From positions 1-26,108 of IMG/VR virus record IMGVR_UViG_3300016476_000505: a stretch of DNA of 26,108 bases; one strand, written 5' to 3'. Of the stretch, positions 1,760 to 26,108 are shown piece after piece (the first letter of the stretch is position 1; each line of letters starts with the position of its first letter). The DNA comes from a virus. Position numbers and translations under genes: made by a program. Under the pieces are notes generated by a model, which saw nothing but the letters and a program-made list of their open reading frames with translations, was not told the DNA's origin and did no database searches.

Positions 1760-3787
1760 ATGCCAATACAATCATTACCGTATTGGGTAGACCAACTGAA
1801 AACAGATGGTAAGTTGGCAGGAACGATTGACGCTTACGAGCGCAACCCTGTTGTGTATCGTGCTGTCAATTTACGATGTGATGCAATCAGTAGTGTACCG
1901 TTCAAAGTCGAACGCAATGGTGAAGAGAGTGATTGGCACTTTACCACACCGTTGCCGTCATTGATTCGTGATACCGAACGGAGTCTACTGTTGACGGGAG
2001 CAGCATTTTGGTTGCGATTAAAGCGTGGCAAAATCCTGTTGGGATTCCGTGTATTGAATCCACTGACAATGCGTGTGCATTACAATCAGCAGGATTATGA
2101 CCCAATGAATCCACTTGCATCATTCCGCTTTGAGCAAGTCGTTGGTGCAAACAAGTGGACGTTCACAAGTGAAGACATTGTCTACTTCCGTGAACCAAGT
2201 TTCACCGATGAAGTAAAAAGTGGTTTAGCACCTGCCGAAGTAGCGCAACAATCAGCGCAACTGAATTACTACTTGGAACGCTTTAACAGTGCGTTCTTCG
2301 AGCATGGTGCGCAACCAATCACTATCATGTCAATGCCATCTGACGTGACACAAGCGGAAGCGCAACGGTTCGAAAACGATTGGCGAAGCAAAGTTACAGG
2401 GCTTATCAATTCATTCCGAACTGTCTTTATCCGTGGGGGTGACATTAAGACCACGGTGATTACACCACCATTGAAAGATTTGATGTTGCCTGAATTGTAT
2501 GACAACACCGTGAAGTCTATTTCAATGGCACTTGGAGTACCACGAACTATGTTGGAGGCGAGTGCTGCCAACTATGCTACTGCTGAATCCGACAGAAAGT
2601 CGTTTTGGCGAGAAACCGTTATTCCACGTATACCACTGTATGAGTACAACATCAACGACCAACTGTTATCTGAATTGGGGTATCGCCTGACATTCCAACC
2701 TGAAGCGTTGGACGTGATGCAAGAAGATGAAAATCAGCGTGCATCGTCATTGAAGTTACTTACTGACGCTGGTGTACCACTGAAAGATGCCATGATTATT
2801 CTTGGTTTCGATTACGAGATTACACCGCAAACAGTGTTGCCACCAAGTGTAAGCGAAGATGTGTACGTTGAAGAACCACCACGGGAAGTAGAAGTCGCAA
2901 GCGTAACAGAGGAAGTGGTTGAATCAGAAGTAGACAAACCACTGCCACGTTCATACAAGTTGTGGCGCAAGAAAGCAGAGCGTCAAATCAATGCTGGAAA
3001 GTCAATGGACTTTGTTTTCGTGAGTGAAGAAATTGATGCTGAAGACCATGCGTGGATTTCGTACAATCTTCAGTTATGTAAAGACTCCCACGATGTCAAG
3101 CATTTGTTTGACTCCCTGAAAGCAAGCATTAGTGAATCAGAGCGACCACTGTATAACGCTGTTGTTGCGACATTGAAGTCCATTGGTGATGACTTTATTG
3201 CCAATGTGATTCCTATGATTTCTTCTGGTTCGGTGCAAGAAGATGACGCACTGTTTGAGGAATTGGAAGTGGTAATGCGACCACTACTGTATCAGCGAGC
3301 GTTTAATCGGTTATCGGAATTGCAAGACCGCTACACCATTGACATTGATGATGCGTTGGAAGCCACGTTGATTAACGAGCAAATTGATGCGTACATGCCA
3401 AAAATGATTAAGGGAATGACAGATACCACCTACGCATTGGTTAAGCAGATTATTGACAAGGCGCGACTTTCTGGTGGGTACACCAACGAGCAACTTGTTG
3501 CATTACTGTCACCTGCATTTGGGAAGCGACGTGCTGAAATGATTGCGGTAACAGAGTACACACGTTCCGCTTCAATGGCTACTACGGTCTATAGTAATTA
3601 CTTGGCTGACTTTGGGGTGAAAACGGTTCGGGTATGGAATACCGAAAACGATGAAATTGTGAAGCGTTGCCCAATCTGTTATCCGTTGAACGGCAAGACA
3701 GATGATGTGTGGAGTGAGAAATACCCTGATGGCGCACCTGCGCACCCACGTTGCCGTTGTGACGTGTCAATAAGGATTGTACGATGA
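1760..3787 (+). CDS. Portal protein (HK97-type) fused in frame to a MuF/SPP1 gp7-like head morphogenesis domain
   Basis: The N-terminal ~400 aa look portal-like ('YERNPVVYRAVNLRCDAISSVPFKV') and sit right after terL. An acidic linker follows. The C-terminus 'WNTENDEIVKRCPICYPLNGK...PAHPRCRCDVS' is the hallmark MuF/gp7 motif. Confidence 0.8.
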   Translation: MPIQSLPYWVDQLKTDGKLAGTIDAYERNPVVYRAVNLRCDAISSVPFKVERNGEESDWHFTTPLPSLIRDTERSLLLTGAAFWLRLKRGKILLGFRVLNPLTMRVHYNQQDYDPMNPLASFRFEQVVGANKWTFTSEDIVYFREPSFTDEVKSGLAPAEVAQQSAQLNYYLERFNSAFFEHGAQPITIMSMPSDVTQAEAQRFENDWRSKVTGLINSFRTVFIRGGDIKTTVITPPLKDLMLPELYDNTVKSISMALGVPRTMLEASAANYATAESDRKSFWRETVIPRIPLYEYNINDQLLSELGYRLTFQPEALDVMQEDENQRASSLKLLTDAGVPLKDAMIILGFDYEITPQTVLPPSVSEDVYVEEPPREVEVASVTEEVVESEVDKPLPRSYKLWRKKAERQINAGKSMDFVFVSEEIDAEDHAWISYNLQLCKDSHDVKHLFDSLKASISESERPLYNAVVATLKSIGDDFIANVIPMISSGSVQEDDALFEELEVVMRPLLYQRAFNRLSELQDRYTIDIDDALEATLINEQIDAYMPKMIKGMTDTTYALVKQIIDKARLSGGYTNEQLVALLSPAFGKRRAEMIAVTEYTRSASMATTVYSNYLADFGVKTVRVWNTENDEIVKRCPICYPLNGKTDDVWSEKYPDGAPAHPRCRCDVSIRIVR

Positions 3788-5077: not shown

Positions 5078-6676
5078 ATGGACACATTGGTTCGGACGTT
5101 CACATCAGAAGTTAAATCGGTTGGTGACTATACCATCAAAGGACGTGCAATCGTTTTCGGTGGCAAAGACTTGGTTGGTGATAGGTTCACCAAAGAAACT
5201 GACTTGGGTGCAAGTCGTTCGTTCTTGGGGTTGCCCGTATATTACGACCACGCACTAGGTGGTGCAAAGAAACAGATTGGGCAAGTCAAGACTTGGGAAA
5301 TCACTGACGATGGCATTGATGTTGAAATCGAAATCGACAAACGTGTATCGTATGCTGACAAAGTGATGGAACTTGTGCGTAAAGGCGTTCTTGGAATGTC
5401 CACGGGTTCGTTGCAACACTTGGTACACCGTCAAGACGGTGAATTGAAGCGGTGGGTAGTAGGAGAGTTATCGTTAACCCCTACCCCTGCAGAGCCACGT
5501 ACCATTGCCCGAAAATCATGGAAGACGATTGGGAATCCATCGTTAAGTGAAAAGGGTGGTAATAATAATGATTCGACACACAACACTGTAGGAGTTACTA
5601 CAACTATGAACAAGGATGAATTGAAGAAAATGTTGGCGGAAATTGCCAACGATGAAGCCGTTGGTGAGCCTGTTAACGGCGGTGGTGTTTACACGGGTGG
5701 TGCGCCAAGCGTCAAAAAGCACACCAAGATGGGTTTCAAAGACGACTTGAAGAGTGCGCAACTTCACTACCTGCGAACAGGTCGTGAGAACGAAGCCGTC
5801 AAAGCCACGTTGCAGGAAGATTCTGGCACGGGTGCGTTGTTGGTGGAAAAAGATTGGGAGCGTGAAATCACTGCCAAGCGTAACGAGAAAAGTATTCTTG
5901 GTGCATTTCCCATTACCCGTCGTACTGTAAATCGTGAGTACTACGATGTTAACGCCGAGGACGGACAGAGCGATTTCGCCTTTGTCGCTGAATTGGGTAG
6001 TGCCAACGTAGACGAGCCCACGTTTGCTCAACGTTCGATTCGGTTGTACAAGGCTTCATTGGCGATGCGTATTTCCAACGAGTTGTTGGAGGATACCACT
6101 TCGAACTTGGAAGACTTCCTTACTGAATCAATCGCCCGTGCATACGCCCGTAACGTCAACAACTACTTCTTGACAGGTACGGGTTCTGGTCAACCACAGG
6201 GTATTGTGCCCCGTGTAACCAACATTGTTACCCTTGCCACTACCACGGGCTTGTCGGTTGACAACATCGAAGCCATGTACCACGCCTTGCCAAGTGCTTA
6301 CCATCAGAACGGTGAGAACGGTTGGGCAATGCGTATGGCAACGTTGGGGGCTATTCGTGGATTGCAGTTGAACGGTTCGTTTGCGTATCAGAACACCCCT
6401 GCTGGTGGTTCAACCGCCAATGGTCAAGAGCAACTGAAGTTCAAGACCGTTCTGCCAACTGATGGTATGCCTGCAATGGCGGCTAGTGCCAAGTCAATTA
6501 TCTTTGGTAATTGGACGTATGCACGCTTCATTGAGCATAGCGGTGGCTTGAAGATTTCACGCAACCCGTATGTGTACGAGGCGACAGGTGAAACCGCTTT
6601 CTTCGTGACCGCCCGTTGGGGTTCGGACTTGATTCTCCCCGAGGCAATGGTCATTGGGCGCAACGCCGCTTCATAG
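5078..6676 (+). CDS. Prohead protease (HK97/S78-like) fused to an HK97-fold major capsid protein
   Basis: Strong RBS 'taggaggtaataATG'. The N-terminal ~150 aa are protease-like ('GRAIVFGG...VYYDHA...GMSTGS'). A low-complexity linker follows. The C-terminal ~350 aa are capsid-like ('FVAELGSANVDEPTF...LAMRISNELLED...TGTGSGQPQG'). Confidence 0.8.
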   Translation: MDTLVRTFTSEVKSVGDYTIKGRAIVFGGKDLVGDRFTKETDLGASRSFLGLPVYYDHALGGAKKQIGQVKTWEITDDGIDVEIEIDKRVSYADKVMELVRKGVLGMSTGSLQHLVHRQDGELKRWVVGELSLTPTPAEPRTIARKSWKTIGNPSLSEKGGNNNDSTHNTVGVTTTMNKDELKKMLAEIANDEAVGEPVNGGGVYTGGAPSVKKHTKMGFKDDLKSAQLHYLRTGRENEAVKATLQEDSGTGALLVEKDWEREITAKRNEKSILGAFPITRRTVNREYYDVNAEDGQSDFAFVAELGSANVDEPTFAQRSIRLYKASLAMRISNELLEDTTSNLEDFLTESIARAYARNVNNYFLTGTGSGQPQGIVPRVTNIVTLATTTGLSVDNIEAMYHALPSAYHQNGENGWAMRMATLGAIRGLQLNGSFAYQNTPAGGSTANGQEQLKFKTVLPTDGMPAMAASAKSIIFGNWTYARFIEHSGGLKISRNPYVYEATGETAFFVTARWGSDLILPEAMVIGRNAAS

Positions 6677-17115: not shown

Positions 17116-17385
17116 TTATACTCCTTGCTGTAATACTTCAATGGCTTCTTTTGCGGTACGAACAACATGCACTGTCCCTTTCCAATCACCATGCCACTTG
17201 ACTTGGGGTTCTGTAAGTTTCCCCTTTAATGTCTTGACTTCGATTAGGTAGTTGCGATTGCGCCACCCTACCAACAAATCTGGCACTCCCTGTCCGACAG
17301 GTGCAAGCGATTGAACACTTGCACCGATAGCCCGTAACGCTTCAACAACGGCTTTTTGATTTAAGTCTACTTTGGCATTTCTCAT
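17116..17385 (-). CDS. VRR-NUC domain nuclease
   Basis: 'GVPDLLVGWRNRNYLIEVKTLKGKLTEPQVKW' carries the PD-(D/E)xK-type VRR-NUC core (PDL...E-V-K...Q). ATGA overlap with the upstream gene. Confidence 0.75.
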   Translation of the reverse strand: MRNAKVDLNQKAVVEALRAIGASVQSLAPVGQGVPDLLVGWRNRNYLIEVKTLKGKLTEPQVKWHGDWKGTVHVVRTAKEAIEVLQQGV

Positions 17386-17834
17386 TCTTTTCCCCTACTC
17401 TTTGGATTAACATTCCACTTGCGAATCCACGCTTCAAATGTTGGAGTACGAACCGTAATTGACTTAAAGAGAATATCCTCGTAGCGTTGCATTGTGTTGA
17501 CGTGATTCCACCACGCATCAAGTGTTGCTGATACCGCATCACCATTGGCAATCGTACGGTGCAAACGGGCTTCAAATCCTTTAATGGCATCTTTGCGTTG
17601 GGTAGGAAATGCAATATCCTGAATCTCACGCCAAACAGTCCAAACTCTGTCTACCCGTTTTGCGGACGCATCGTCAAGCGTTGCGTACAACGTGGTGTAT
17701 GACTCCCCGTATGCTGATGCGTTGGTGTACGTGTCTTCGATAATTGTTGGCAGATTAGCCACGCATTGCTCGCAACAATTCAATGTAGCATTCCCAATCT
17801 TTGTCATTACGCTATTACACAGTGTGCATTTCAT
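17382..17834 (-). CDS. Hypothetical protein with an N-terminal zinc ribbon (CxxC...CxxC)
   Basis: 'MKCTLCNSVMTKIGNATLNCCEQC'. Start chosen at ATG 17834, 7 nt after AGGAG. The track's extension to 17873 runs through the intergenic hairpin. Confidence 0.55.
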   Translation of the reverse strand: MKCTLCNSVMTKIGNATLNCCEQCVANLPTIIEDTYTNASAYGESYTTLYATLDDASAKRVDRVWTVWREIQDIAFPTQRKDAIKGFEARLHRTIANGDAVSATLDAWWNHVNTMQRYEDILFKSITVRTPTFEAWIRKWNVNPKSRGKE

Positions 17835-17853
17835 TGTCATTCTCCTTTGATGT

Positions 17854-17881
17854 GGTAGCGTGTGGATTGCCACACGCTACC
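17854..17881 (-). other. Perfect 12-bp GC-rich hairpin with a 4-nt loop between the primase-helicase gene and the next gene
   Basis: GGTAGCGTGTGG-attg-CCACACGCTACC. No U-tract follows on the minus strand. Possible RNA processing, attenuation or stability element. Confidence 0.6.
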
Positions 17882-23093: not shown

Positions 23094-23151
23094 CACAAAC
23101 TCTCTTTCACTCTCATTGTTAGCGTAGGATAGATTTCTATCCTTACATGTA

Positions 23152-23180
23152 ATTATACATCTATTCTACGATACTGTCAA
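23152..23180 (-). promoter_or_regulatory. Early leftward promoter with perfect sigma70 consensus
   Basis: The minus strand reads TTGACA (23180..23175), a 17-nt spacer, then TATAAT (23157..23152). An AT-rich UP-like stretch lies upstream. A 7-bp hairpin, aggatag/ctatcct (23126..23143), lies at the predicted 5' end of the transcript. Confidence 0.75.
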
Positions 23181-23293
23181 TAGGATTGTTGCAATTTGTT
23201 TTACGAATATTGAAATCCGCGCGCCCCGCGACCGCCGACCGAACCGCGAACGTCGTCTAGCAGTAGGCAGCACTCTTTCTGCTACCATGAAGT

Positions 23294-23569
23294 GAATTAA
23301 GGGCTTACTTAATTCCATTATTTGGCTTCCTATTGCGGTAAATGACACTTAATTAGGGAATTAAGGGTGCAATTAAATCAGATTTATTTTCACAACTATT
23401 GTATATACACCAATGTAAAACATTATTTTTAAAATTACGATTCATTACTATATTGCCTTAATTCCTTAATTAAGATAGTAATATAAGTGATTAGGAAGCC
23501 AAATACCGCAATTAAGGGTTGAATTAAGATTGGGAATTAAGGCTTAATCCAATGAAGCCCCTTAATCCC
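23294..23569. repeat. Array of AATTAAG/CTTAATT sites: 10 exact and 3 degenerate copies in both orientations
   Basis: Exact AATTAAG starts at 23295, 23359, 23468, 23510, 23522 and 23535. Exact CTTAATT starts at 23308, 23348, 23457 and 23465. Degenerate copies are at 23371, 23543 and 23561. The array includes the 10-bp palindrome CTTAATTAAG at 23465..23474. Confidence 0.85.
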
Positions 23570-23631
23570 AAGCACCCCTTATACCGCTGGAAATACCCCG
23601 TAATCGTACCTGAAATCGTGGTTTTGGCTAG

Positions 23632-23785
23632 TTGACATAATAATTATTCATTACAGCGGTTTTATTATGTCAATCAAAAATCATGATTATGTCAACTAAA
23701 ACCATTTTATGTCAAGCAGATTTCGTATTATGTCAAGCAAAGTGGCACTTTTTATTATGTAAATCTGTATCTGTGATTATGTCAA
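23632..23785. repeat. Iteron array: TTATGTCAA with 5 exact direct copies, 1 degenerate direct copy and 1 exact inverted copy
   Basis: The inverted TTGACATAA is at 23632..23640. Direct copies start at 23665, 23687, 23707, 23728, 23755 (TTATGTAAA) and 23777. Start-to-start spacings are 22, 20, 21, 27 and 22 nt. Confidence 0.9.
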
Positions 23786-23807
23786 CACTTGCACTACAGG
23801 GTATAAT
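23779..23807 (+). promoter_or_regulatory. Putative rightward (late/lysis) promoter
   Basis: ATGTCA (4/6 match to TTGACA, inside the last iteron), a 17-nt spacer, then perfect TATAAT (23802..23807). It lies about 90 nt upstream of the endolysin gene. Confidence 0.5.
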
Positions 23808-23897
23808 AAGAGTAGAGGATAGTGTAAACCCCACGTACATTTCCTCAATGTAGTGGTCTACCACTGATGGATGGTTCGAAGACTAGTACCGTGACAC

Positions 23898-24461
23898 ATG
23901 GGGTGTGTGCGTATGGCATTTTTGTCGCAAATTGAACAATGGCGAACTGTTGATGCGTTCAACAATCACCTACTGCAACACGCCCCCGTGGTGTCTTCTT
24001 GGGCAACAGGTGTGGTAATTCACCATACGTGGAAACCAACGCCTGCGCAATGGCGTGGCAAGTCTACGATGAATGCGATTCAACAGTACTACATGAATAA
24101 GAAACCTGTATGGAACGCCGCACCACACTTGTTTATCGTGAGTGGCTCACCTGATGCGTCTAATGATGGTATATGGCAAATGACACCGCTCAACGAGCGT
24201 GGGATTCACGCTGGTGCATGGAATAGCACCCATTGGGGTATCGAAGTGGTTGGCAACTATGATGCTGAATCGTGGTCGCCTGCTACCCGTGCATTGGTCT
24301 ATGGCGCAATCACATCACTATTCCGTTGGCGGTCAATTCCCTACAACCGCTTTGCAATTATTGGACATCGTGAAACAGGTTCAAAGAAGACTTGCCCTGG
24401 TAAGTGCATAGATATGAATCAGATTCGTGGTGATATGCAACAGATTCTTGGTGGTGCATAA
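23898..24461 (+). CDS. N-acetylmuramoyl-L-alanine amidase endolysin (Amidase_2 / T7-lysozyme-like)
   Basis: 'VVIHHTW', 'HAGAWNSTHWGIEVVGNYD' and 'IIGHRETGSKKTCPG' provide the His/His/Cys zinc ligand context. ATG 23913 is an alternative start. Confidence 0.85.
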   Translation: MGCVRMAFLSQIEQWRTVDAFNNHLLQHAPVVSSWATGVVIHHTWKPTPAQWRGKSTMNAIQQYYMNKKPVWNAAPHLFIVSGSPDASNDGIWQMTPLNERGIHAGAWNSTHWGIEVVGNYDAESWSPATRALVYGAITSLFRWRSIPYNRFAIIGHRETGSKKTCPGKCIDMNQIRGDMQQILGGA

Positions 24462-24491
24462 CCACAGCTTGAAAGACCAAAGGAGAAATCG

Positions 24492-24719
24492 TTGGTGGCA
24501 AGTGAAGTACATGACATTGCTATTGGTATGGCAGAATTAAAAGCGACTATGATTCAACGACTAGATGACATTGTGCGACGCATTGACAACTACGAACGGC
24601 GCAATGACAAACTAGCAGAGGAAGTAGACAAACTGAAAACACAAGTCAACTTGTGGAAAGGCGGTCTACTTGCACTCTCACTGATTTATCCGATAGCAGT
24701 GAAATACTTTTTACCGTAG
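24492..24719 (+). CDS. Small coiled-coil protein with a C-terminal transmembrane anchor (lysis accessory?)
   Basis: AGGAG lies 6-9 nt upstream of the TTG/GTG start. Heptad-like 'LDDIVRRIDNYERRNDKLAEEVDKLKTQV' is followed by the hydrophobic 'GGLLALSLIYPIAVKYFL'. Confidence 0.5.
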   Translation: MVASEVHDIAIGMAELKATMIQRLDDIVRRIDNYERRNDKLAEEVDKLKTQVNLWKGGLLALSLIYPIAVKYFLP

Positions 24720-24729
24720 GAGTAACCCA

Positions 24730-24906
24730 ATGAAGAAGTGGTATCAAAGTAAGACGTTGTGGTTCAATGTGTTGACCCTGTTGGCTATGGTGCTGGCAAC
24801 GGTGGCAGGGTGGCAGGAAGTAGAAGACTATGCGAACTACCTGCTGTATGCTGTCAACGTAATCAACATTATCTTGCGATTTATGACAGTGAATGGGATT
24901 AAGTAA
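24730..24906 (+). CDS. Putative holin, 58 aa with two predicted transmembrane helices (below the ORF-track size cutoff)
   Basis: My own translation is MKKWYQSKTLWFNVLTLLAMVLATVAGWQEVEDYANYLLYAVNVINIILRFMTVNGIK. GGAG lies upstream. It fills the gap between flanking genes exactly and is adjacent to the endolysin. Confidence 0.6.
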   Translation: MKKWYQSKTLWFNVLTLLAMVLATVAGWQEVEDYANYLLYAVNVINIILRFMTVNGIK

Positions 24907-24908
24907 AT

Positions 24909-25919
24909 ATGCCACCACAAAGAACCCACAACAAGTGGAGATTCATTGTGCGTGAAAATGGAAGTAGGAAGTGGAAGTCTTTTGACGACTATGAAACCTG
25001 CTACGCTGAATGGGTTGCGTACCACAACCGCAACAAAGCAACATCACCCACATCAGTAGAAGTTAATTACATTGAACAGTATACTGATGTGGGAACGTTG
25101 TGGGATTATGCCACAAGTAATCCTAGCGTCAAGCGAAAAGACATACCATTTGTTACATTCCCTGCCAATGAATCGTTCGCAATCGTATTCCTCTCTGACT
25201 TGCACATTGGCAACGCCGCAACTGACTATGAGAATCTGCGGCGTGATGCTGAAATCATTCGCACTACTGACAATATGTATGCGTTCTTTCATGGTGATGG
25301 AATTGATAATTGGATTGTAGGAAAGTTACAATCTTTGCAACGAGGGCAATCCATACCGTTCGACAGCGAGATGGCATTGTTCCAAGCGTGGATTACGACC
25401 ATACAACCAAAACTAATAGGTGTAGTAGCAGGGAATCACGATAATTGGACAAAGAAGATGGCAGGGATTGATTACCTAAAGCATATCAGTCCACCATTTG
25501 CCATGTACGATGCAAACGAAGTGATATTTCGGCTGCTTTGGGGAAGTAACAGTAAGACCATTGCCGTTCGTCATAAGTGGCGTGGTACATCAATCCTGAA
25601 CCCTACGCATGGTATGGAGCGTGCAAGTAAGGATATTGATGCGGACATATACGTTGGCGGACATACCCATATCGGTACACTATTCCGTGACTTCGTGGTA
25701 CGTCAACGTGACCGTATTGCAGTGCTGACAGGTACGTACAAAGTGGTTGATTCCTATGGTGATGAATTAGGATTGCCACCACCGCAACATAGTGGGTGTG
25801 GTGCAATCGTCTTTGACCCTGATGGTTCAATGACGGTGATGCGCAACCTGACAGAAGCAGCACGATACTTGGACTTCAAACGTTGCCGTGAAAATGAACA
25901 AGCGAGTACGTATGCGTAA
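24909..25919 (+). CDS. Calcineurin-like metallophosphoesterase with an AP2-like N-terminal extension
   Basis: All metallophosphoesterase (MPE) motifs are present: 'SDLHIG' (DxH), 'HGDGID' (GDxxD), 'AGNHDNW' (GNHD), 'VRHKW' and 'GGHTH' (GHxH). The N-terminal 'NKWRFIVRENGSRKWKSFDDYETCYAEWVAYH' resembles the AP2/integrase-type DNA-binding pattern. The 3' end overlaps the terS start in circular coordinates. Confidence 0.8.
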   Translation: MPPQRTHNKWRFIVRENGSRKWKSFDDYETCYAEWVAYHNRNKATSPTSVEVNYIEQYTDVGTLWDYATSNPSVKRKDIPFVTFPANESFAIVFLSDLHIGNAATDYENLRRDAEIIRTTDNMYAFFHGDGIDNWIVGKLQSLQRGQSIPFDSEMALFQAWITTIQPKLIGVVAGNHDNWTKKMAGIDYLKHISPPFAMYDANEVIFRLLWGSNSKTIAVRHKWRGTSILNPTHGMERASKDIDADIYVGGHTHIGTLFRDFVVRQRDRIAVLTGTYKVVDSYGDELGLPPPQHSGCGAIVFDPDGSMTVMRNLTEAARYLDFKRCRENEQASTYA

Positions 25920-26108
25920 ACCAAGAAGTAAAGCACCACCACTAAAAGAATTAGCGTTGCCCAAAAGCGCAATGCACAAACCACTGCACGAACATGAAAC
26001 GCTTGATGAGGCTGGGATGAGTAAGGTGGTACACAAAGATGGAACGCCCAAAAATCGCACCACCAAAGTACGACCCATTGAAGACGGGAAATCGTATCAG
26101 ACTTGGAT
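25864..26108. repeat. Terminal direct repeat, copy 2. It contains a second, truncated image of the terS 5' end from 25888.
   Basis: Same sequence as 1..245. The terS ATG at 25 corresponds to 25888. Confidence 0.9.

Follow-up and report, generated by a model that had tools for sequence, protein, structure and literature searches.

What would a metallophosphoesterase (MPE) with a putative DNA-binding module at its N terminus do for a virus that places its gene immediately before the gene for the terminase small subunit (terS)? The question is raised by the window analysed here, a stretch of 26,108 nucleotides whose ends overlap by 243 bp, which makes it a circular contig of about 25.87 kb. A sequence-only reading of this locus had proposed an AP2-like domain fused to an MPE, acting as a targeted nuclease in packaging or homing, and our analyses partly support this interpretation.

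The open reading frame (ORF) at 24909..25919 (+) begins with ATG, ends with TAA and encodes a complete protein of 336 amino acids. It is a genuine gene, as its product matches Pfam Metallophos (PF00149) and PHROG 7339 and has 234 homologues, and the ATG at 24909 is backed by an N terminus (MPPxKxxNKWRF) that is kept in homologues P0002-P0022. The start codon of terS (ATG, 25912) precedes the MPE stop codon (25917-25919), so that the two genes overlap, as had been claimed, and do so by 8 nt within ATGCGTAA. This end of the window carries the 5ʹ part of terS (25912..26108, +) and, because the window ends overlap, the gene resumes at 46-600; its identity is given by PHROG 4044 (terminase small subunit, E 6e-17). 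Directly upstream of the MPE gene is a lysis cassette (23898..24906, +) that comprises an Amidase_2 endolysin (23898-24461, +; Pfam Amidase_2 E 9e-17, PHROG endolysin) and two ORFs for small membrane proteins, recognized by their sequence (24492-24719 and 24730-24906, both +), and only 2 nt separate its last stop codon from the MPE start. The MPE gene shares its strand, presumably the late one, with the genes for lysis and structural proteins, and it is tightly enclosed by lysis genes on one side and packaging genes on the other. A search for terminator-like sites on this strand returned none, and shuffled sequence contains promoter-like sites at least as often as the gene does. A location among lysis and packaging genes would be odd timing for an early host-takeover nuclease, which speaks against a nuclease reading.

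The catalytic core of the protein spans residues 90-313 (25176..25847, +), as delimited by invariant columns, Foldseek matches and an hhalign alignment to gp110 of phage P23-45. Its motifs are D97-x-H99, G129-D130-x-x-D133, G175-N-H-D178, H222 and G251-H252-x-H254. These five motifs, already recognized in the sequence-only reading, are invariant across an alignment of 61 homologous sequences (D133 at 90% or more), and the core also carries the family-specific motifs VRHKWRG and TGTYK. Profile and structure comparisons agree with the motifs: the Pfam Metallophos score of 24.5 bits (E 4.3e-5) exceeds the cut-off of 21.5, PHROG 7339 (‘DNA repair exonuclease’) matches residues 84-294 with an E value of 7e-39, and the AlphaFold2 (AF2) model of the protein (pLDDT 87, pTM 0.83) matches MPE proteins in Foldseek with E values down to 2e-10. 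On the basis of motifs, profile score and fold, the protein belongs to the calcineurin-like MPE superfamily, and its active site is intact. The core is followed by a long C-terminal helix (residues 314-336, 25848..25916, +; AF2 helix 314-335, pLDDT above 90).

The best structural match in the PDB is the archaeal PolD subunit DP1 (E 2e-10, TM 0.51), and other matches include LpxH (2e-7), Mre11 (7e-6) and SbcD (1e-4). The nearest structures are thus nucleic-acid MPEs (DP1, Mre11, SbcD), which supports a nuclease function, although LpxH, a nucleotide-sugar pyrophosphatase whose presence among the best matches counts against such a function, is also found. Neither phmmer nor a full-length profile search of PDB sequences returned an MPE match at E<=1, the sole matches being insignificant ones to the non-MPE proteins methionine gamma-lyase and GapR, and our view of the substrate therefore derives from the fold, a further point against a nuclease reading. 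With Mre11/SbcD and DP1 the protein shares the calcineurin-like fold and the metal-ligand motifs, a similarity at the level of fold, as phmmer and the profile search against the PDB gave no sequence-level match to any of them. It differs from these enzymes in its N-terminal domain and in that no capping domain is evident in its predicted secondary structure, and scans of 31 ORFs across the complete genome gave no sign of Rad50/SbcC, a PolD large-subunit partner or an SMC/ABC ATPase. The sequence-only reading had named the fold of both Mre11/SbcD and lambda phosphatase. Foldseek agrees with the former, whereas the lambda phosphatase/PPP signature (GDxxDRG and GNHE) is absent, the window MPE having GDGIDNW and GNHD in its place, and lambda phosphatase was not matched in PDB sequence searches or among the top 50 Foldseek matches. 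No NCBIfam or PADLOC model matched the window MPE.

For the N-terminal region, approximately 90 residues of which had been described as AP2-like, profile searches and structure prediction gave a mixed outcome. Residues 1-45 (24909..25043, +) form a putative DNA-binding module whose AF2 model contains strands at 4-6, 9-16 and 19-25 and a helix at 28-44, a fold that was repeated in full-length and isolated-domain runs (pLDDT 83-91). The predicted model has the AP2 topology, namely a three-stranded antiparallel sheet on one helix. When a profile of 58 N-termini was searched against the PDB, the AP2/ERF chains 5wx9, 1gcc, 2gcc and 7et4 (ERF096, two chains of AtERF1, and TEM1) occupied ranks 1-4 and WRI1 (7wq5) ranked sixth, with AP2/ERF E values ranging from 0.0024 to 0.13. 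Foldseek searches with the isolated 50-residue domain likewise placed AP2 domains at ranks 1, 2 and 6, but with E values of at least 1.1, which are not significant. The Pfam AP2 model (PF00847) had no match in the 90 N-terminal residues of the window protein even at E<=10, and matched just one of 68 homologue N-termini (E 0.0075). A search of 5.8 billion proteins with the N-terminal profile yielded only three matches (two fragments of the same family and one tandem AP2-like protein), as a domain this short is not informative at such a database size. Topology together with coherent, low-scoring profile matches thus gives moderate support to the label ‘AP2-like’ for residues 1-45; the weakness of the assignment at the sequence level is a point against a nuclease reading. 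Residues 46-89 (25044..25175, +) are instead a linker, defined by alignment and AF2, with a conserved helix at 61-69 (LWDYA). This helix is kept in family members regardless of the type of N-terminal domain, and W65 is the only invariant N-terminal residue of the family.

The architecture of the wider family is consistent: the N-terminal domain varies, being AP2-like, HTH-type or absent, and is followed by the conserved linker and the MPE core. The family divides at 50% identity into about 2,600 clusters, of which 533 match at E<=1e-30, and a contig profile scan of 185,579 species-representative genomes found no relative. Curated models beyond the generic PHROG label do not cover it. Among the best 150 cluster representatives, 17 have AP2-like N-termini, in about 20 the N-terminal stretch is too short to accommodate a domain, and many of the others look HTH-like by eye; at the same position, homologues match Sigma70_r4_2, HTH_23, HTH_24 or Myb-like domains (best E 1e-8). 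The N-terminal domain is therefore modularly exchanged within the family. Its exchange for HTH domains argues for exchangeable DNA targeting and, because HTH domains fill the same place in homologues, the AP2-like module is very likely DNA-binding. A literature search for AP2-MPE fusions returned nothing.

Does its position before terS indicate a function in packaging? In many HK97-like cos phages, according to the sequence-only reading, this slot holds an HNH endonuclease required for terminase cleavage, and HNH genes that adjoin cos and terminase genes are on record (PMC3592412). The MPE might accordingly be a packaging cofactor that replaces the HNH protein in cos cleavage or otherwise assists terminase, and several observations fit this idea. 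The gene lies directly upstream of terS with the 8-nt overlap in the window and 9 close relatives, shares its strand with the lysis and structural genes, and resides in a genome that was correctly described as devoid of HNH genes, as none was detected in PHROG scans of the 31 ORFs of the complete genome or by phmmer searches with two HNH proteins against its six-frame translation. The window TerL, however, is a T4-like Terminase_6N/6C protein that contains an RNaseH-like nuclease domain of its own, and the portal carries a fused Mu F-like domain. We take this TerL and portal to be a headful-type set rather than a terminase of the HK97 type, which acts together with an HNH protein encoded next to it. 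The terminase associated with HK97 gp74 is HK97-type. The gp74 arrangement resembles the present one in that a putative nuclease gene sits immediately upstream of terS, but the fold and motif are HNH there and MPE here, the terminase here is Terminase_6, synteny with terS is not conserved, and the MPE is dispensable in relatives.

Comparison with related phages also argues against an involvement in packaging. In six sister loci the gene order is dcd-MPE-lysin-holin-terS, such that the lysis cassette separates the MPE gene from terS, and the gene therefore occupies two different intergenic sites (dcd-MPE-lysin and holin-MPE-terS). Furthermore, 20 relatives with homologous terS, terL and portal genes, whose TerL proteins are 42-62% identical, lack the MPE: the family HMM had zero matches at E<=10 in these phages versus 64 in the control set. 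These relatives were found by a TerL scan of viral contigs, which returned nothing with a single sequence but succeeded with an alignment as the query. In four of them (L075, L078, L082 and L086) the holin gene abuts terS. The MPE is present in about 17 relatives of this same phage type. Most family members belong to modules for replication or nucleotide metabolism that are remote from any terminase. The dcd gene is immediately upstream of the MPE gene in seven loci, and ThyX is within about 1.2 kb downstream in 17. Elsewhere the gene follows primase, DnaB, PolA, RecA and a Cas4-like nuclease (L071) or DCD-Thy1 (L069), or lies among ThyX, RNR, MazG, a methylase and the beta clamp (L067), and in a Pseudomonas phage it is an early-region gene that comes after replication genes and the gene for a RusA-type resolvase.

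The MPE gene is thus an accessory gene with no conserved linkage to terS, and its site before terS results, in this lineage, from the compactness of the genome and does not point to a role in packaging. Comparative genomics has largely refuted the packaging cofactor, which we regard as very unlikely. Because the same gene shifts or vanishes among relatives, a place just before terS in a compact phage genome says little about what a gene does. The most likely reading of the locus is a variable accessory slot at the boundary between replication or lysis genes and packaging genes; five of the 20 relatives without the MPE carry a DNA methyltransferase upstream of their lysis and packaging genes.

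Several known phage systems bear on what the enzyme might do. Gp110 of Thermus phage P23-45, also annotated in P74-26 and G20c as ‘metal-dependent hydrolase / DNA repair exonuclease’, belongs to the same MPE family (PHROG 7339), as hhalign aligns it with the window family over 208 columns that include VRHKWRG and TGTYK (probability 98.7%, E 2e-16). The gp110 gene also follows endolysin and holin genes, but its product has 270 residues without an N-terminal DNA-binding domain, and it is not near a terminase. A literature search on the function of gp110 returned nothing.

Stand-alone phage MPEs have now first been tied to function through T5 A1, Bxb1 gp47 and A10ZJ24 gp48. The mycobacteriophage protein A10ZJ24 gp48 is a counter-defence DNase that breaks down host DNA both in vivo and in vitro (PMC12287305). 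Replication of phage DNA requires Bxb1 gp47, whose gene lies among replication genes. The protein is a weak exonuclease, and its structural neighbours, DP1, Mre11 and LpxH (PMC11795197), are also those of the window MPE. Both of these cluster A proteins carry all five motifs, as does the window MPE, but neither has a fused DNA-binding domain, and gp47 doubles as the RDF of a serine integrase, whereas the window lacks an integrase. T5 A1 is a predicted metallophosphatase that is both required and sufficient for degradation of the host chromosome, and A2 is a DNA-binding dimer that binds both DNA and A1. Together they constitute an MPE and a DNA-binding function that act jointly on DNA, and the window protein could be a fused equivalent of the pair. 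The T5 system differs in that A1 has 556 residues, its DNA-binding function is a separate protein, and A1 is encoded by a pre-early gene, in contrast to the window MPE, whose gene belongs to the lysis/packaging operon. Alignments of the window family by hhalign gave a probability of 4.7% with Bxb1 gp47, confined to motif V and indicating no specific sequence relationship, and of 0.9% with T5 A1, again around motif V only. The likeness to T5 A1, Bxb1 gp47 and A10ZJ24 gp48 would thus be one of action rather than of demonstrable relatedness. That a relationship to gp47 or A1 cannot be demonstrated beyond motif V counts against a nuclease reading, as does the fact that bulk DNA degradation needs no sequence-specific DNA-binding domain.

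Given an intact MPE fused to a module that is very likely DNA-binding, a DNA-targeted nuclease is the most reasonable enzymology, and this part of the sequence-only reading survives without the proposed packaging role. We consider the protein to be an accessory, DNA-tethered MPE, most likely a metal-dependent DNA nuclease and not a terminase cofactor, with a probability of approximately 0.5. From the evidence above we infer DNA binding, nuclease activity and a biological role as follows. The 45-residue AP2-like module would dock the protein on DNA, the conserved linker helix would connect it to the Mre11/DP1-like core, and the core would hydrolyse phosphodiester bonds. The enzyme would then most likely serve phage DNA metabolism or host takeover, either by degrading or nicking host DNA or by processing replication or recombination intermediates, and the family context, with dcd, ThyX and replication genes nearby, favours DNA metabolism over packaging. 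If the domain truly targets the enzyme to DNA, the family would represent a natural set of modular nucleases and could account for the way in which many uncultured phages attack the DNA of their hosts or process their own.

A more specific proposal, which we regard as unlikely, is that the family constitutes a new class of domain-guided, site-specific nucleases built on the MPE fold, in which AP2-like or HTH modules set the target. Such enzymes could be homing-type selfish elements, or could process phage-specific DNA at the iterated motifs at 23.1-23.9 kb or at defined host sites. The homing form of this proposal, in which the swappable domain aims the MPE at a site in relatives that lack it or at a phage-specific site, seems rather improbable. 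The architecture of the window protein is nonetheless suggestive, as its DNA-binding and nuclease-like domains lie at opposite ends, an arrangement described for phage homing endonucleases, including the free-standing HNH-AP2 (IPA-HNH) proteins (PMC10448857). In the IPA-HNH proteins, however, the nuclease is HNH and the AP2 domain is C-terminal, whereas the window protein has an MPE and an N-terminal module that is missed by Pfam AP2. Phage HNH-AP2 homing endonucleases were reportedly described by Magnani et al. in 2004, and we know of no MPE shown to act as a homing endonuclease. The alternation of AP2-like and HTH modules, the presence/absence polymorphism and the two intergenic positions also fit homing, an option raised in the sequence-only reading. 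Opposed to this, pairwise identities of MPE and TerL co-vary (r=0.91, 36 pairs), such that the MPE co-diverges with core genes and shows no sign of recent horizontal spread, its position next to ThyX is stable over 17 loci, and no degraded copies were seen. If homing were nevertheless true, free-standing homing genes would include a nuclease class that had not been described before.

Many MPEs are small-molecule phosphodiesterases, and it is possible, albeit unlikely, that the protein is a phosphatase, pyrophosphatase or phosphodiesterase acting on the dNTP/dNMP pool, on nucleotide-sugars or on cyclic-nucleotide immune signals, with the DNA-binding domain serving autoregulation or localisation. 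The gene repeatedly adjoins those for dCTP deaminase and ThyX, the window yielded no dUTPase gene, the UDP-sugar pyrophosphatase LpxH is among the best structural matches, and the methyltransferases of the five relatives without the MPE suggest an anti-defence accessory slot. However, a pool enzyme leaves unexplained why most of the 150 representatives carry an exchangeable, lineage-specific DNA-binding domain, and the best structural matches are to DNA-acting MPEs. The failure of PADLOC and NCBIfam models to match also weighs against this option, as does the fact that the phage dTMP/dTTP hydrolases known so far have other, non-MPE folds (PMC12697855, a paper on dU-DNA enzymes).

Two further features of the window deserve mention. 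The control region at 23.1-23.9 kb (23097-23897) contains the iterated motifs TTATGTCAA and AATTAAGG, six copies of each. These intergenic iterons are not kept as exact words in relatives, and we therefore draw no link between them and the AP2-like domain. Finally, a ‘thymidylate synthase’ PHROG match had raised the prospect of a hypermodified-base pathway, which was rejected because the ThyX of the window is ordinary (TIGR02170) and adjoins an equally ordinary dCTP deaminase (TIGR02274).

The open reading frame at 24909-25919 on the plus strand (ATG start, TAA stop, 336 amino acids in the ORF list) had been read from sequence alone as a metallophosphoesterase (MPE) with a full motif set, and both the exact coordinates and the motifs held. 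Every metal-ligand residue (D97, H99, D130, N176, H177, H222, H252 and H254) is invariant in an alignment of 61 homologues, as are the family-specific positions R221, W224, N231, T233, E237, R260 and Y277. The protein passes the Pfam Metallophos threshold (24.5 bits versus 21.5), and PHROG 7339, labelled ‘DNA repair exonuclease’, matches residues 84-294 (E 7e-39). When the 61-homologue alignment was used as input for AlphaFold2, the resulting model (pLDDT 87, pTM 0.83) matched the PolD DP1 proofreading exonuclease in a Foldseek search of the PDB (E 2e-10, TM 0.51), followed by LpxH (2e-7), Vps29, Mre11 (7e-6), the B subunits of Pol zeta and delta, and SbcD (1e-4). Among viral models, the matches are uncharacterised phage MPEs, some of which bear the label ‘DNA polymerase II small subunit’. 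PDB sequence searches, including one with a profile, returned nothing significant, and NCBIfam and PADLOC contain no model for this protein. By these comparisons, the family is a divergent branch of the metallophosphoesterase superfamily.

The N-terminus had been proposed to carry an AP2-like pattern over approximately 90 residues. The motif is present but extends only over residues 1-45, which we assign as an AP2-like module with moderate confidence. AlphaFold2 models of both the full-length protein and the isolated domain place strands at 4-6, 9-16 and 19-25 before a helix at 28-44, which is the AP2 topology. Pfam AP2 does not match this N-terminus, but AP2/ERF domains rank first when a profile built from 58 family N-termini is compared with all PDB sequences (ERF096, E 0.0024; AtERF1, 0.021 and 0.024; TEM1, 0.04; WRI1, 0.13), with an alignment that covers strand 3 and the helix. 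A Foldseek search with the 50-residue domain model places AP2 domains at ranks 1, 2 and 6, none of them significant (E>=1.1).

A stronger argument for DNA binding than AP2 similarity comes from other homologues, which hold Sigma70_r4_2 (best E 1e-8), HTH_23, HTH_24, Myb-like and further HTH domains at the same position. Seventeen of the 150 best cluster representatives are AP2-like, and in approximately 20 the N-terminal stretch is too short to accommodate a domain; many of the others are HTH-like as judged by eye. This comparison argues that the AP2-like module likewise binds DNA. Every N-terminal variant is followed by a conserved linker in which W65 is the sole invariant residue. The database copy of the protein (P0001, 323 amino acids) is called from an internal GTG at 24948 and so loses strands 1-2, or half of the AP2-like domain. 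The fusion would therefore go unseen in automatic annotation. The ATG at 24909 is supported as the start because the N-terminal sequence MPPxKxxNKWRF is conserved in more than 20 homologues.

The ends of the window are identical over 243 bp (1-243 and 25866-26108), and the window is thus a complete genome of approximately 25.87 kb, either circular or circularly permuted. Because the junction falls inside the 3ʹ end of the MPE gene and terS, this repeat represents an assembly overlap rather than physical ends. The plus-strand arm begins with an Amidase_2 endolysin (23898-24461) and continues with two small membrane proteins, MPE, terS, terL, portal, capsid and tail genes. A 58-residue two-transmembrane protein ends 2 nt before the MPE gene, whose stop overlaps the ATG of terS within ATGCGTAA; terS (plus strand; PHROG 4044, E 6e-17) continues at 46-600. 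Next on the same strand are terL (533-1759; Terminase_6N/6C with an RNaseH-like nuclease domain) and a 675-residue portal (1760-3787) fused at its C-terminus to a Mu F-like/SPP1 gp7-like head-morphogenesis domain that is usually encoded by a separate gene. PHROG and Pfam scans place an HK97-fold major capsid protein of 532 residues at 5078-6676 (plus strand). Its N-terminal extension of approximately 250 residues weakly matches head-maturation protease and scaffold families (PHROG 80, 7015 and 4523), and the genome yielded no separate gene for a protease or scaffold. The minus strand encodes ThyX, dCTP deaminase (Dcd), a VRR-NUC nuclease, a DUF6782-like protein and a 928-residue primase/D5-type helicase. 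The minimal 89-residue VRR-NUC protein, a candidate junction resolvase, and the DUF6782-like putative metallopeptidase (163 residues) lie at 17116-17873, between the primase-helicase and Dcd/ThyX genes. Among cultured viruses, TerL is closest to those of the archaeal Methanobacterium phages psiM2 and psiM100 (29% identity), and the psiM2 genome (26,111 bp) is almost equal in size. The host is presumably bacterial, since the endolysin is of the bacterial Amidase_2 type.

What had made the MPE attractive was the hypothesis that it serves packaging in place of a terminase-associated HNH endonuclease. Terminase type, synteny and presence/absence agree in contradicting this role, and a link to packaging is not supported. 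The Terminase_6 TerL and Mu F-like portal form what we take to be a headful-type set, not the HK97-type enzyme that acts together with a neighbouring HNH protein. HNH genes are described in one account as often adjoining the cos site and terminase genes (PMC3592412).

The slot directly upstream of terS is genuine in the window, yet among 63 IMG/VR loci recovered with MPE the order lysin-TM-TM-MPE-terS is limited to nine close relatives (58-65% identity). In six sister loci (50-60% identity) the order is dcd-MPE-lysin-TM-terS-terL, such that a holin-like gene rather than MPE abuts terS. Three loci carry dcd-MPE with no terminase within 6 kb, and in 17 others MPE is followed by a small ORF and then ThyX. 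In larger phages, MPE is located in replication or nucleotide-metabolism regions: after DnaG-like primase, DnaB, PolA, RecA and Cas4-like nuclease genes in one, amid ThyX, RNR, MazG, methylase and beta clamp in another, and after DCD-Thy1 in a further one. In a Pseudomonas phage it belongs to the early region, where replication genes and a RusA-type resolvase gene lie upstream of it. In a pooled Pfam scan of 143 neighbour proteins from 17 representative loci, PolA, ThyX, RecA and PDDEXK appear four times each and Terminase_6N three times.

A TerL-seeded search recovered 20 additional relatives (TerL 42-62% identical) that share homologous lysin, holin, terS, portal, capsid, dcd, VRR-NUC and primase genes. 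None of the 20 has MPE by tblastn, and the family HMM gives no match at E<=10 in six-frame translations, whereas the same HMM yields 64 matches in the MPE-seeded control loci. In four of these relatives (L075, L078, L082 and L086) terS follows immediately on the holin gene, and in two (L076 and L093) dcd and lysin lie too close together for MPE to fit between them. Therefore, this terminase does not need MPE, which is an accessory gene in a variable slot. In five MPE-less relatives (L080, L083, L088, L091 and L092) an N6/N4 DNA methyltransferase, accompanied in L091 by a beta sliding clamp, is encoded upstream of the lysis and packaging genes, which identifies the module boundary as the site of a variable accessory locus.

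With its patchy presence among relatives, two insertion positions, and a DNA-binding domain joined to a nuclease, the gene resembles free-standing homing endonucleases (PMC10448857) and could be read as such an element. We do not favour this reading, because MPE and TerL pairwise identities correlate across nine genomes (r=0.91) and no degraded MPE copies were seen. The correlation indicates that the gene, where present, has diverged at the pace of a core gene. Experimental work on stand-alone phage MPEs points to DNA in each case. The A10ZJ24 protein gp48 is an early-expressed DNase that degrades host DNA and enables the phage to replicate in M. tuberculosis (PMC12287305). The predicted structure of Bxb1 gp47 has DP1, Mre11 and LpxH as neighbours (PMC11795197), the same as those of the window protein, and the gp47 gene is located in a group of replication genes. 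Degradation of the host chromosome by T5 requires the predicted metallophosphatase A1, which also suffices for it and which acts together with the DNA-binding dimer A2. Outside motif V, however, no relationship to gp47 or A1 is detectable, and the likeness is one of action rather than membership. We propose that the AP2-like module anchors a metal-dependent nuclease on DNA, much as if A1 and A2 were fused into one protein; the enzyme would take part in attack on host DNA, in counter-defence or in the processing of intermediates of phage DNA. A nucleotide-directed activity is kept as a rival to this tethered nuclease, given that Dcd and ThyX are recurrent neighbours and that LpxH is among the structural matches.

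The packing of MPE between lysis and packaging genes, the lack of any terminator-like site on their strand, and a frequency of promoter-like sites inside the gene no higher than in shuffled sequence together suggest late expression. Such timing would suit the processing of replicated DNA more than early takeover. The two divergent arms are separated by an 800-bp gene-free region (23097-23897) that contains two groups of iterated motifs. TTATGTCAA occurs six times, at 23632 (minus strand), 23665, 23687, 23707, 23728 and 23777, with a spacing of approximately 21 bp among the four copies at 23665-23728 and just two further copies elsewhere in the genome. (G)AATTAAGG(G) occurs six times at 23295-23542 and is absent from the rest of the genome. 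Neither motif is preserved letter for letter in relatives. Both are candidates for origin iterons or operators, and a phage DNA-binding protein, for example the AP2-like module, may target them. Facing the minus-strand early/replication genes is a promoter that matches the sigma-70 consensus perfectly (TTGACA, 17 nt, TATAAT; 23152-23180, minus strand).

The MPE family comprises 2,643 clusters at 50% identity with E<=1e-3, or 533 with E<=1e-30, and a scan of 185,579 species-representative genomes detected no member. Phage MPE nucleases are already known; the new element is the architecture in which an exchangeable AP2-like or HTH domain is joined to the MPE, for which no description was found in the curated libraries or literature searched. 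The MPE of Thermus phage P23-45 belongs to the same family (hhalign probability 98.7%) and follows endolysin and holin genes in a 9.5-kb stretch without an annotated terminase gene. Adjacency to lysis-type genes recurs in very distant phages: MPE comes directly after endopeptidase and holin in P23-45 (genes 108-110, locus L001), and directly after a 90-residue ORF with a weak holin Pfam match in the approximately 100-kb phage type of locus L069, with which the contig of homologue P0045 is syntenic.
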